Assembly: GCF_000008565.1 (NCBI RefSeq)
Contig: NC_001263.1
Span: 2,128,660 to 2,160,659 of the forward strand
Source: Deinococcus radiodurans R1 = ATCC 13939 = DSM 20539
GTDB taxonomy: Bacteria > Deinococcota > Deinococci > Deinococcales > Deinococcaceae
Direction of reading: 5' to 3'
Length of the DNA stretch: 32,000 nt
The position numbers and the translations under genes were made by a program. This document shows positions 239 through 14,969 of the stretch, in pieces. The notes under the pieces were generated by a model that did not search any database, was not told the origin of the DNA, and saw only the letters and a list, made by a program, of their open reading frames with translations. The stretch's first letter is position 1, and each line of letters begins with the position of its first letter.

Positions 239-267
239 TTGTCTGGAATGGTCGTGTCCCGTATAAT
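239..267 (+). promoter_or_regulatory. Sigma-70-type promoter upstream of infA
   Basis: TTGTCT (239-244), a 17-nt spacer, then a perfect TATAAT (262-267). This implies a ~130-nt leader before the infA ATG at 407. Confidence 0.6.
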
Positions 268-4000: not shown

Positions 4001-6601
<2,601 letters not shown>

Positions 6602-6609
6602 AACGGGTC

Positions 6610-6615
6610 AGTGTA
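6610..6615 (-). promoter_or_regulatory. -10 box (TACACT) 8 nt upstream of the U32 ATG; leaderless-type promoter
   Basis: The reverse strand reads ccgcgtTACACTgacccgttATG. There is no Shine-Dalgarno. Confidence 0.4.
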
Positions 6616-6719
6616 ACGCGGAGAAGGGAAAAGCGGTGTGGTCCACCTCCCCCTTGAGCCTCAATCTTTTCTCCGCTGTCCCTCGTAAGGCCGGTACTTC
6701 AGGTTGCCTGCCACCTCTC

Positions 6720-6854
6720 ATACGGTTTCAAATTGAGTCCCGAACATGTTCGGGCGCAATTTTGCGCGGAGCGCATGGAAAAAATACGGTTTTAAGGAGA
6801 TGGATGGGCATCCGGCGCCTTTCCGGATGTTCGGGAATCGGATTAAAGCCGTAT
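6720..6854 (+). repeat. MITE-like small non-coding repeat, family A, copy 1 (131-bp core flanked by AT)
   Basis: About 96% identical to 13142-13276, with 5 differences. Imperfect terminal inverted repeats ACGGTTTCAAAT.../...GATTAAAGCCGT. Internal hairpins are CCCGAACATGTTCGGG, GCGCAA..TTGCGC and CATCCGG-cgccttt-CCGGATG. Confidence 0.9.
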
Positions 6855-6989
6855 AACGCGAGGGCTTCAAAGGCGGCCTGCCTGAGTCGGGCATTGTGTT
6901 CCAGTCGGGCCTGAGCAGGGTTCATGCGTCAGTTTAAGGAGCGAGAACAACATCGGGGCCAGACGGCTGACCTCATTCCCATTCCATTC

Positions 6990-7019
6990 AAAAAAGCCGC
7001 CAGCCTGAAGCCAGCGGCC
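6990..7019 (-). terminator. Probable terminator of the usp gene
   Basis: On the reverse strand a GC-rich imperfect hairpin (GCCGC...GCGGC) is followed by TTTTTT (comp. 6990-6995). It lies 15 nt after the stop. Confidence 0.45.
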
Positions 7020-7034
7020 CCCCACACGCGATCC

Positions 7035-7487
7035 TTATTCCCGCCAGTTCGTGACCGGCTGCTCGCCGCGAATCAGGACCACCGGCACGTGGGCGTGGTG
7101 CAGCACCGCCTCGGCCACGCTGCCGAGCAGGGCGCGGCCCAACCCGGCGCGGCCATGGGTGGTCATCACGATCATGCTGACGCCTTCTTCCTTCGCCACG
7201 TCGATGATGGTGCGCGACACGGGCCGGCCGGCGGCACGTTCGACGCGGGAGCGCGCGCCCTGCACCTTTTGCCGCAGCAGCGCCAGCGCCTGGTCCTGCT
7301 GCAGGATGAAGTCTTCGGGATTGGCGGGCGCGACGTAGCCGAATTCGCCGGTCACGGCGGGACTGGGATCAGCCTGCACGCTCAGGGCGACCAGTTCGGC
7401 CCCCAGCGCCTCCGCCAGCGCGCGAGCGTGCTCGGTGGCCTGCCAGCCGAGGTCGCTTTGATCCGTCGTGACCAGAATTTTCTTCAT
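7035..7487 (-). CDS. Universal stress protein (UspA family)
   Basis: 150 aa: MKKILVTTDQSDLG...VMTTHGRAGLGRALLGSVAEAVLHHAHVPVVLIR, which includes the typical USP ATP-binding motif. Confidence 0.9.
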   Translation of the reverse strand: MKKILVTTDQSDLGWQATEHARALAEALGAELVALSVQADPSPAVTGEFGYVAPANPEDFILQQDQALALLRQKVQGARSRVERAAGRPVSRTIIDVAKEEGVSMIVMTTHGRAGLGRALLGSVAEAVLHHAHVPVVLIRGEQPVTNWRE

Positions 7488-7549
7488 ACCTGAGGATAAA
7501 TCCTGCGTCTCAGACTTATGTCATGGGGTGCATGGGGTAGGCAGTCGGC

Positions 7550-9513
7550 TCAGGGGCCGCGCGCATACAGGTCCACGCGGGTGCTGGGCCGCACGTCCTC
7601 CCGCGCCGCGATGCTGATGACCGCCGTGCTGCCGCCCTTGTCACGCAGGCCGGTGAGCAGCGTCAGCAGGTCGCCCACGTCGAGCCCCGGATTGGCGATG
7701 TACTCGCCCGGCACGCCGCGCAGCGTCAGTTCGAGGACGGTGTCCTGCATCAGTTCGGTGATCTGACTCTGGAGCACACTCTGATTCTGAAGGTTGATGG
7801 TCGCCTGACGAATCGGCTGCCCGGCGCGGTAGAGCAGCGTGTTGGCGCGGGCGTCGCAGGTGAGCTCGACCGGCAGGCCCGCCACACTGTTTTGCGCGGC
7901 GCGGCAGATGACGAACGCGCTGGTGTTCAGGCCACGCAATTTGGTTTCCAGCGAGGCGCGTGCCGAGGGCCCCAGCCGCGCCGCCGGGCTGTCGGCTCCG
8001 GGCCGGGCCCCACGCGCGGCGGCGGTGCCCCCGGCGACCTTGAGGAAGGTGTCGAGGCTGCGGACCGAGGGCACCACCCCGGCGTAGACCAGTTCGTTTT
8101 TCGGGTAGGTGAGTTCGGCGGTGCGGCTGAGGCTGAGTTCGCTGCGGGCGCTGGAATAGTCGGCCTGGAGGCGCGAGAGGCTCTGGCGCGTCTGGGCGAG
8201 GTCCTGGGCGAGCGCCGCGTTGCTGCCCTGCAACTGCCGCTGCTGGGTCCGCAGCGTGGCGAGGTCCTGCCGCACCCGGTCGCGGTCCTGCACCGCTTTG
8301 TCGCGCGCCTGCACCGCCTGGGTGCGCTCAGCCTGCAACCGGTCGCGCTCGGCCACCAGCCGGTCACGGGCGTCGAGGGCCTCCTGCCGCTCGGCGACGG
8401 CCTGGTCGCGGGCCGCCGCCGCCGCGTCACGTGACTGGATGGCCGCGTCACGGGCCGCTGTCGCCTGCCGCGCCTGGGCTTCGAGCGCCTGCACCTGAAC
8501 GCGCAGGGCCGCCGCGCGCTGCTGGGCCTGTGCGCCTGGGCCTGCGCCTGCTGCTGGGCCTGCGCAACCTGCTGGGCGGCACCCGTCCGCACCTGCCCGA
8601 GCTGGGTCTGGGCGGCCTGCTGCGCCTGACGGACACTCGCCTGCGCGGCGGCCTGGGCCTGGGCCTGCACCTGTTCAGCCCGTGCCTGGGCCTGTTCGGC
8701 GCGGCGCTGGGCTTGCCGGGCCTGCTCGCGGACCTGTTCGGCGCGCGCACTCGCCTGCTGCGCCTTTTGCGAAGCCTGCGCGGCGCGGGTCTGCGCGGCT
8801 TGGGCTGTCGCCTGGGCCGCCGCCGCCCGCCGCTGCAACTCCTCGGTGCGGGCCTGGGCGGCGTTGGCGCGGGTCTGGGCGTTCTGGGCTTCCTGCTCGG
8901 CCTGCGCGCTGCGGAGCTTGAGATCAAGCACCTGCGAGTCGAGCTGGGTGGCGCGGTCCTCACTGGCCTGAAGCTGCTTTTGCGAAGCCTGGAGTTTCTC
9001 GCGGCTGGCCTGTGCCTGGGCTTCGAGCTGACGGCGCTGCTCGGCCAGGGTCTTGAGGCGCGTTTGCAGGTCCTGCGCCTGTTTCGTCAGCCGGGCCTGT
9101 TCCTGCTGGGCCGAGGCGAGGTTCTGGCGGGCAGCCGCGAGTTCCTGCCGAGCGGCCTCGCGCTCCTGCCCCGCCTTCTGCGCTTCGCTGCGGGCGGCTT
9201 CACGCTCGGTCCGGGCGGCGCGCAGTTCGCCCTGCACGGTGCCGACTTCGGTACGCAGCGCCTCGATCTGAGGCCGCAACTGGTCGGCCTGGGCAATGGT
9301 GGACACGGCGTTGCGGTTGAGCAGCAAAAACGCTGCCAGGCTCGCCGCGCTGATCGCCATGCCCGAGAGCACCGCCACGATGGTCGCCGTCTGCTTGGGC
9401 CGCAGCCCGAACCAGCGCAGGTGCTTGCGGCCCGCTTTCTTGGCGATGGTGTCGGCGGCGTAGGCCACCACGCCCGAAAGCACCACCACGAAGGGCAAAA
9501 ACAGCCACAGCAC
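7550..9513 (-). pseudogene. DUF3084-like membrane-anchored coiled-coil protein, interrupted by a frameshift near 8529-8532
   Basis: The N-terminal frame (from GTG 9513) gives a transmembrane anchor plus a long Q/A/R-rich coiled coil. It turns into Arg/Pro-rich nonsense after ...[11 protein letters not shown]. The sensible sequence continues in another frame (...[23 protein letters not shown]...) down to the globular C-terminal domain ending at 7550. Confidence 0.75.
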
Positions 9514-12199: not shown

Positions 12200-12966
12200 A
12201 CCGGCAGCTGTTTGCCGCGCTGCTGAGTGTCTGCTCGCTGGCGACGGCAGCACCGGCCACCCTGCGCGACCCCCGCGTGGACGTGCCGCGCCAGATGTTT
12301 ACCTCAGCGCAGCAGCGCATCCTGGACGCGCTGGCAACCCGGATTCAGGCCCGCCCGGCGGCGGTTCCGGCCTTGCAATGGCGGGGCGGCGGGCTGGACG
12401 GTGGCGCGGCGTGGCTGTCGTTCAGTGCGCCTTTTCGCACCCGGACCCCCGAACGGCTGGACGTATTTTCGGTGGGGCAGACGGAAGGTCTCCACTTCCT
12501 GCTGGTTCTGACCCGGCCCGGCGAGCGCGAGCAGGTGTGGCTGCTGGAGCCGACCGACATGGGCAACTGGGCCAATTACTACGCCCCCAAAACGATTTAC
12601 ACGGCCCGTGACCTCAATCTGGACGGGCGGCGCGAACTGGTCATCGAGTACGCGGGGGGCATCGGTGACGGCGGGGGTAGACAGTCCAGCACGTCCCTGC
12701 TGCTGCTGGATTTCAATGCCCAGGGGCCGAAAATTTGGGGCAGTCTTCCCGTGAACGACGCCGCATTCGGCCCCGACGGTGAAGTGTTCCGGCAGGCGGC
12801 CTACGTGGTGCAGGTCGAGAAGGGCAAAACGCCCCGCTTTCAGGGCCTCTTTCTCAAGACGCTGAGCAAGCCCTTTGCCGAGCGTGAGCAATACGCCGCG
12901 ACAGGGAAAGTCGTCCCGCTCAAGCTGGACCCCACCCCCCCCTTCAAGTTGACGCGGCTGTGGTAA
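12196..12966 (+). CDS. Secreted hypothetical protein
   Basis: MNRQLFAALLSVCSLATAAPA is a signal peptide. A DLNLDGRRELV (FG-GAP/VCBS-like) motif is present. The start overlaps the upstream stop. Confidence 0.65.
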   Translation: MNRQLFAALLSVCSLATAAPATLRDPRVDVPRQMFTSAQQRILDALATRIQARPAAVPALQWRGGGLDGGAAWLSFSAPFRTRTPERLDVFSVGQTEGLHFLLVLTRPGEREQVWLLEPTDMGNWANYYAPKTIYTARDLNLDGRRELVIEYAGGIGDGGGRQSSTSLLLLDFNAQGPKIWGSLPVNDAAFGPDGEVFRQAAYVVQVEKGKTPRFQGLFLKTLSKPFAEREQYAATGKVVPLKLDPTPPFKLTRLW

Positions 12967-13577
12967 GGGCAGGCGGCACGACCTCTGCCACCTCGTCCTC
13001 CCCCAGCGGCTCGAACTGCGACCTCAGCACCCGGTACGTGTTTTCCGCGACGTACAGATGCCCCGGCTCGCGCTCGTTGCGGGCCAGCACGCGGGCGAGG
13101 GCTTCTGCGTCGGGCAGCGTCAGGGCGTAGAGGCGCACCTCATGCGGTTTCAAATTGAGTCCCGGACATGTCCGGGCGCAATTTTGCGCGGAGCGCATGG
13201 AAAAAATACGGTTTTAAGGAGATGGACGGGCATCCGGCGCCTTTCCGGATGTTCGGGAATCGGATTAAAACCGTATCAGCACCAACTTCTGCCGCCACCG
13301 CCCGCAGGTGGTCACGCTCCGAACGCCGCCACACGCCACTGTCCAGAATCACGTGCCCACCGAGTTCGAGGCAGCGCCGCCAGCAGCCTTCCATCACCCC
13401 GCGCACCCGGTCCTGGGCGGCGCGGTACTCGCTTTCGGGCGGGTCCTCACCGGAGAGAGCCACCATCCACTCGTCCTGCGAGAAGCGGATGCCGGGCAGC
13501 TCGCGCTCCAGCCGCCGCGCCAGCGTGGTTTTGCCCACGCCCATAAAGCCGTGAAGAAGGTGGAGGGTGCCGGGCAT
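12944..13577 (-). pseudogene. P-loop kinase (AAA_33 / gluconate-kinase-like) gene disrupted by a family-A repeat insertion
   Basis: The N-terminal part is MPGTLHLLHGFMGVGKTTLARRLERELPG...AAEVGAD (13577-13275). The C-terminal part is EVRLYALTLPDAEALARVLARNEREPG...FEPLGEDE... (13141-12944), in a different frame. The two parts are separated by the repeat. Confidence 0.8.
13142..13276 (+). repeat. MITE-like small non-coding repeat, family A, copy 2 (inside the kinase gene)
   Basis: Same orientation and length as 6720-6854. The 131-bp core (13144-13274) is flanked by AT on both sides. Confidence 0.9.
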
Positions 13578-13583
13578 GGAGCA

Positions 13584-13589
13584 AGTGTA
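13584..13589 (-). promoter_or_regulatory. -10 box (TACACT) 6 nt upstream of the kinase ATG; leaderless-type
   Basis: The reverse strand reads gggcgtcTACACTtgctccATG. Confidence 0.4.
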
Positions 13590-13650
13590 GACGCCCTGTC
13601 CCTGCGGCGGCTGGAATAGACGCCGGGCCTTTTCCCCTCTTCCCGCCGCC

Positions 13651-13656
13651 TATCCT
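13651..13656 (+). promoter_or_regulatory. -10 box (TATCCT) 6 nt upstream of the hisD ATG; leaderless-type
   Basis: cgccgccTATCCTctccccATG. There is no Shine-Dalgarno. Confidence 0.45.
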
Positions 13657-13662
13657 CTCCCC

Positions 13663-14969
<1,307 letters not shown>

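Follow-up and report, generated by a model that had tools for sequence, protein, structure and literature searches.

The question raised by this locus is whether two adjacent open reading frames (ORFs) on the reverse strand are the halves of one gene split by a small repeat and, if so, what kind of insertion split it. The locus lies in the window, a 32,000-nt stretch of chromosome 1 of Deinococcus radiodurans R1 (NC_001263.1, positions 2,128,660–2,160,659). The ORF listing of the window contains a 145-aa ORF (13140–13577, minus strand), which starts with MPGTLHLLHGFMGVGKTT, and an 84-aa ORF (12944–13198, minus strand) in a different frame, as described in the initial annotation. The 145-aa ORF corresponds to AAF11693.1 of D. 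radiodurans R1, which carries the public label "AAA family ATPase", and the 84-aa ORF corresponds to DRO_2110, which is labeled a hypothetical protein and has its start codon within the repeat. Public annotations treat each of the two as an ordinary gene and label neither as a pseudogene, and the truncated ORF is found across several independent R1 annotations. The product of the neighboring hisD gene is identical to AAF11684.1. A scan of positions 12700–13800 for promoters and terminators detected no signals of either type.

The two ORFs are the halves of one predicted AAA_33 kinase. The N-terminal 100 native codons (13278–13577, minus strand), which end in ...EVGA, contain the Walker A sequence GFMGVGKT and match AAA_33 positions 1–97 with 72.8 bits. 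The C-terminal 65 native codons and stop (EVRLYALTLPD...TTAAST; 12944–13141, minus strand) are now out of the frame of the N-terminal half and have zero Pfam matches by themselves. Deletion of 136 nt joins the halves into a 165-aa protein that covers the AAA_33 profile from end to end (1–143 of 143). AAA_33 assignment was based on a score cutoff of 27 bits, full-length profile coverage and the GxxGxGKT (Walker A) motif; the rebuilt kinase contains the motif and scores 94.9 bits, compared with 95.1 and 98.1 bits for orthologues. The earlier proposal that a MITE-like repeat splits a single AAA_33 kinase gene is thus borne out. No PDB entry matched the sequence of the rebuilt kinase at E ≤ 0.01.

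Intact versions of the gene exist in relatives. A search of a large protein collection identified uninterrupted relatives of 156–177 aa with 81–90% identity, four of which are 165 aa long with 100% query coverage; the intact 165-aa orthologues have 83–90% identity. Many further Deinococcus homologues are present at 40–60% identity, and three truncated relatives at 98–99% identity each carry a repeat-encoded tail. The two halves align colinearly with 15 intact homologues across the junction (...GA/E...). The empty-site DNA was obtained from contigs encoding three of the closest orthologues, which were aligned to the window gene and differ from it by a single clean 136-nt gap. Two of these contigs (L001 and L003) also share the downstream neighbors of the window gene, which are a convergent gene of ∼256 aa, a DUF3108 gene and a Metalloenzyme-family gene. 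Uninterrupted orthologues that run colinearly across the junction, which the initial annotation had named as the confirming observation, therefore exist in the same downstream setting.

The empty and filled sites define the boundaries of the insertion at single-base level. The empty sites read GGGGC/CGAG (or CGGA or CGAA after the slash), and the filled site reads GGTGC[TGA]TACGG...CCGCA[TGA]GGTG. The sole direct repeat that flanks the insert is TCA on the plus strand, and the 133-bp element at 13143–13275 is bounded by this 3-bp duplication. The upstream copy of the duplication (13276–13278, minus strand) is TGA on the gene strand and TCA on the plus strand, and its T occupies the third position of the GCT codon for Ala100. 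The closest orthologues use GCC where R1 uses GCT, and the T of the TGA target is therefore absent in them. The downstream copy (13140–13142, minus strand) is likewise TGA on the gene strand and constitutes the stop codon of the 145-aa ORF, which consists of 100 native residues followed by 45 residues whose codons lie in the duplication and the element. The truncated ORF retains the P-loop and has lost the last third of the AAA_33 domain (positions 98–143). Given this truncation, the kinase has likely lost its function.

The inserted segment is a non-autonomous element of the SNR/MITE-like type with the ends TACGGTTTYAA...TTAAAACCGTA. Its length is 133 bp rather than the 131 bp first assigned to it. 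The element has 11-bp imperfect terminal inverted repeats (TIRs), TACGGTTTCAA and TTAAAACCGTA, which are complementary at 10 of 11 positions. The kinase-gene copy deviates from the family consensus at one of 133 nt, an A to G change at plus-strand element position 2, and its gene-strand end consequently reads CCGCA. As single-stranded DNA, the element folds with a free energy of –30.7 kcal/mol (z = –4.7). The element is non-coding and multicopy: the window contains it twice, and a BLAST search of 940 kb of Deinococcus DNA gave 138 full-length hits. An Rfam scan of the window returned no family match. A 71-nt hairpin module within the element (TACGGTTTTAAGG...CCGTA; 13205–13275) also occurs as a stand-alone unit, as seen on D. 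radiodurans chromosome II (L008:1500–1570), where the module (TACGGTTTYAAGG...CCGTA) has its own TGA/TGA duplication. The 133-bp element looks like this 71-nt module extended by 62 nt, within which the terminal repeat occurs a third time.

The second copy in the window (6721–6853) is intergenic and sits between an 866-aa ORF (4001–6601, minus strand) and an ORF at 6924–7493 (plus strand). Over positions 6717–6854 it is 96% identical to the kinase-gene copy, and a 31-mer from the repeat has two exact sites in the window against zero expected. The repeat that the initial annotation had placed inside the gene as a member of its family A is thus a true repeat. The second copy is probably older, because its duplication is imperfect (TCA at 6718–6720 and TAA at 6854–6856) and it differs from the consensus at four positions. 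A 117-aa ORF (6561–6914, plus strand) that crosses the second copy is probably spurious. The TTATACGG sequence at window positions 259–266 was considered as an element and rejected; it lies in a –10-like TATAAT context.

The 3-bp duplication at the kinase gene recurs across the family. Other Deinococcus genomes were scanned, one per species, with the conserved right end as the query, and at least 120 blocks of 8 kb were listed, nearly all from D. taklimakanensis and six from D. antarcticus. Duplication statistics were compiled for 124 full-length copies among the matches listed, which came from three Deinococcus species other than D. radiodurans. Within this set of listed matches, 101 of the 124 copies are exactly 133 nt long and 100 are flanked by a perfect 3-bp T-N-A duplication (TGA, 39; TCA, 37; TTA, 16; TAA, 7), with one mismatch in 23 more. 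Among the matches listed, 106 of 122 copies have identical middle bases in their left and right flanks, compared with 30% expected (binomial tail, 1.5e-38). Copies on D. wulumuqiensis plasmids and on D. radiodurans chromosome II also have T-N-A on both sides, with a middle base that is matched within each copy and varies between copies. Among the matches listed, C predominates immediately before the duplication and G immediately after it, and C...G flanks occur in 27% of these copies versus 6.7% of background TNA sites. The preferred target is thus the palindromic C-TNA-G, and the C-TGA-G site in the kinase gene agrees with it.

The same insertion is found in independent assemblies. A metagenome contig with several substitutions in the flanks (L130) contains the identical insertion, duplication and end mutation. 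A second contig (L129:429–845, JGI metagenome 3300005397) contains the same insertion and an extra 137-nt deletion in an allele that is otherwise identical to R1. This deletion extends from inside the element (after TTTTTTCCA) to ...GGGG/CATCTG of the gene, has a short CAT microhomology at its ends and reflects either further decay of the pseudogene or an assembly artefact. Because the identical insertion occurs in independent assemblies, it has been inherited. Both gene halves are open, with nucleotide identities to orthologues of 84–89% in the N-terminal half and 86–92% in the C-terminal half. The insertion is real and inherited in the D. radiodurans lineage, is young relative to species divergence and took place after the split from the lineages with an intact gene.

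Two alternatives concern how the segment entered the gene. The initial annotation had envisaged a 131-bp core with a 2-bp AT duplication and a 166-aa ancestor reading ...GADEVRLY.... AT is present on both flanks, and deletion of 133 nt (13142–13274) does give a 166-aa ORF with an AAA_33 match, as anticipated, while the 131- and 135-nt deletions leave the frame broken, in agreement with the initial annotation. However, 133 and 136 leave the same remainder on division by three, and frame restoration alone is therefore unable to separate these two deletions. The 166-aa product scores 87.4 bits, 7.5 bits below the 165-aa product, its extra Asp residue is absent in 15 of 15 intact orthologues, the gap in orthologous DNA is 136 nt, and the middle base of T-N-A co-varies between the two flanks across the family among the matches listed. 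An AT duplication is accordingly rejected. A TA duplication of the IS630 type was rejected by the frame after a 131-nt excision, by the 136-nt gap and by the co-varying middle base. Because the duplication is a 3-bp TNA, the flanking AT represents the last base of the duplication and the first base of the element, mirrored on the opposite side; the central idea of the initial annotation was right and its insertion geometry wrong. Mobilization without a DDE enzyme, through a REP/RAYT-like or IS200/IS605-like single-strand route or through copying by recombination or repair, would make TNA a motif instead of a duplication. The strong hairpin-forming capacity of the element, the active IS200/IS605 element of D. 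radiodurans (ISDra2) and the failure to find a cognate transposase in 940 kb of Deinococcus DNA speak for such a route. It is nevertheless unlikely, given that the TNA position holds one triplet in the empty site and two in the filled site and that the middle base co-varies in most of the copies listed. Moreover, insertion of IS200/IS605 elements takes place 3' of a fixed motif and generates no direct repeats (PMC8944449).

The remaining alternatives concern the reality and the consequence of the insertion. Sequencing or assembly error deserves consideration because many sequence errors are known in the 1999 R1 genome, and the 136 nt could in principle have been lost by the orthologues instead of gained by R1. 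These are the least probable readings of all. The truncated ORF recurs in several independent records of R1 and relatives and in metagenome contigs, and insertion is the parsimonious direction because the matches listed include more than 120 copies of the segment's family, with duplications. It is also improbable that the split is tolerated or functional, with the 145-aa product or both fragments retaining kinase or ATPase activity or with the element acting in regulation. Walker A is intact, neither half has acquired further stops or frameshifts, the halves are equally conserved relative to orthologues and the insertion has been inherited in diverged lineages. However, the N-terminal fragment lacks AAA_33 positions 98–143, the absence of decay is equally explained by the youth of an insertion whose element is 1 nt from the consensus, a further 137 nt are already missing from one allele, and the scan around the locus detected no promoter- or terminator-like signals.

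The best explanation, with a probability of roughly 0.87, is that a 133-bp non-autonomous SNR/MITE-like element inserted into a 165-aa AAA_33 kinase gene, duplicated TGA and left a gene that is now a young pseudogene, as follows from its split into two ORFs. On this explanation, the C-TGA-G target arose in the D. radiodurans lineage through the synonymous GCT codon for Ala, and the allele before insertion is predicted to have read GGTGCTGAGGTG. The element then entered the kinase gene at codon 100/101 in this lineage through a 3-nt staggered cut, with duplication of TGA. The insertion leaves the 145-aa hybrid ORF and an orphan 84-aa ORF that holds the last 65 native residues.

The fixed-length 3-bp duplication at a palindromic target, the TIRs, the lack of coding capacity, the high copy number and the strong hairpin potential are together characteristic of a non-autonomous element whose integrating transposase cuts with a 3-nt stagger. 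The element was presumably mobilized in trans by a DDE transposase of a type that generates TNA duplications. Such duplications are made by IS5-family elements of the ISL2/IS1031 type. The element would thus work like an IS5-type MITE, with putative membership of the IS5 family. The duplication type is the one basis for naming a transposase family, because the TIR of the IS5-family element ISDge6 (AGACC...) is unrelated to the TACGGTTT ends of the element, no partner element was seen, and PMC11219805 assigns ISDra3, ISDra4 and ISDra6 of R1 to IS630. Searches for an autonomous element with TACGGTTT ends found none in 940 kb of Deinococcus DNA and no further matches on Deinococcus plasmids. Paired TNA+TACGG ends separated by 250–5000 bp yielded four candidates, and the one inspected proved to be a fortuitous 8-mer within a lysine aminomutase-like ORF. 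When the 940 kb were compared with themselves by megablast, no repeat of at least 500 bp emerged. The search for the transposase is now narrowed to enzymes that make TNA duplications.

The element family extends beyond D. radiodurans. Massive amplification is seen in D. taklimakanensis KCTC 33842 (blocks within L009–L128), where the family is far more abundant than in the window, and copies with 96–99% identity occur in D. taklimakanensis, D. antarcticus and D. wulumuqiensis (plasmids L005–L007). The D. taklimakanensis copies have a mean pairwise identity of 96.5%, and 10 are identical to the consensus among the matches listed. The kinase-gene copy of R1 matches the consensus at 132 of 133 positions, whereas ordinary genes of R1 and D. 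taklimakanensis are 71–84% identical. Such near-identity across diverged species suggests a recent horizontal spread.

Some 133-bp copies carry another element inside their TTTTAAGG sequence (L044:469–736 and L012:2564–2832). This sister element is ∼130 nt long and has the ends TACGGATTCC...GGAATCCGTA. It shares the terminal pentamers of the 133-bp element and likewise consists of two modules, with CCGTA-TCTTTTCC at their junction; in L044, a TAA/TAA duplication surrounds the sister element. Nested TNA insertions may explain the "mosaic" architecture of SNRs. A more comprehensive proposal is tentative and somewhat less than evenly favored, namely that a single C-TNA-G transposase system recently spread the element among distant Deinococcus species and that sister elements (TACGG...CCGTA) nested in TTA/TAA sites generate the SNR mosaics.

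A rough screen for other copies inside genes gave six candidates, and only one, a D. taklimakanensis copy on the minus strand of L017, looked real. Removal of this element (reverse-complement positions 7582–7715) together with one TGA copy yields an ORF with an AAA_31 (ParA-like) match (59.8 bits, profile positions 76–170) that spans the junction. L017 is a probable second gene interruption by the element family. The gene may already have been damaged earlier, because the N-terminal part of the AAA_31 domain is missing. Outside the window in D. radiodurans, at DR_0609/DR_0610, a further "AAA family ATPase" is given lengths of 162, 156 and 88 aa by different R1 annotations and precedes a 73-aa hypothetical protein (PMC11219805); it might be another split small-ATPase gene.

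Small repeats of this kind have been known in D. radiodurans since 1999. The SNRs (or SREs) are 60–215 bp long and "mosaic" and comprise nine types with 295 copies (PMC1978522); they were described by Makarova et al. in 1999 and 2001, as summarized in PMC1978522 and PMC11276467. The element shares with them the organism, the 60–215 bp size class, the non-coding, interspersed and multicopy character and the mosaic build. No SNRs were found in D. geothermalis (PMC1978522), yet the element family is found in three other Deinococcus species. SNRs are treated as mobile, and the copy number of SNR4 differs between R1 genome versions according to a 2024 report (PMC11276467). The initial annotation fairly regarded the locus as direct evidence that these repeats were mobile, but the general claim of mobility is not new because SNRs were already regarded as mobile. 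The locus is a clear but ordinary transposon-made pseudogene, a new documented instance of a known phenomenon that leaves the general picture of SNR mobility unchanged. It provides a base-exact pair of filled and empty sites for a Deinococcus small repeat, which fixes the chemistry as a 3-nt stagger at C-TNA-G, and it flags AAF11693.1 and DRO_2110 as a single pseudogene mis-annotated as two genes.

The bacterial MITEs derived from IS630/Tc1-mariner elements, including Correia elements and RUP, make 2-bp TA duplications. The Deinococcus element is likewise short, TIR-bounded and non-coding and lies in or beside genes, but it duplicates a 3-bp TNA. Insertions of the REP/RAYT or IS200/IS605 type lack a target duplication, whereas the element has one and its empty site is at hand. 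A 3-bp direct repeat, TCA, is documented for ISDge6 of D. geothermalis, an element of the ISL2 group of the IS5 family (PMC7674623). With ISDge6 and the ISL2 and IS1031 groups of the IS5 family, the element shares the 3-bp T-N-A duplication, with TCA among the commonest forms, the presence of TIRs and the genus. The element is short, non-coding and multicopy and combines TIRs with a fixed 3-bp duplication and an empty site, which are features of a MITE.
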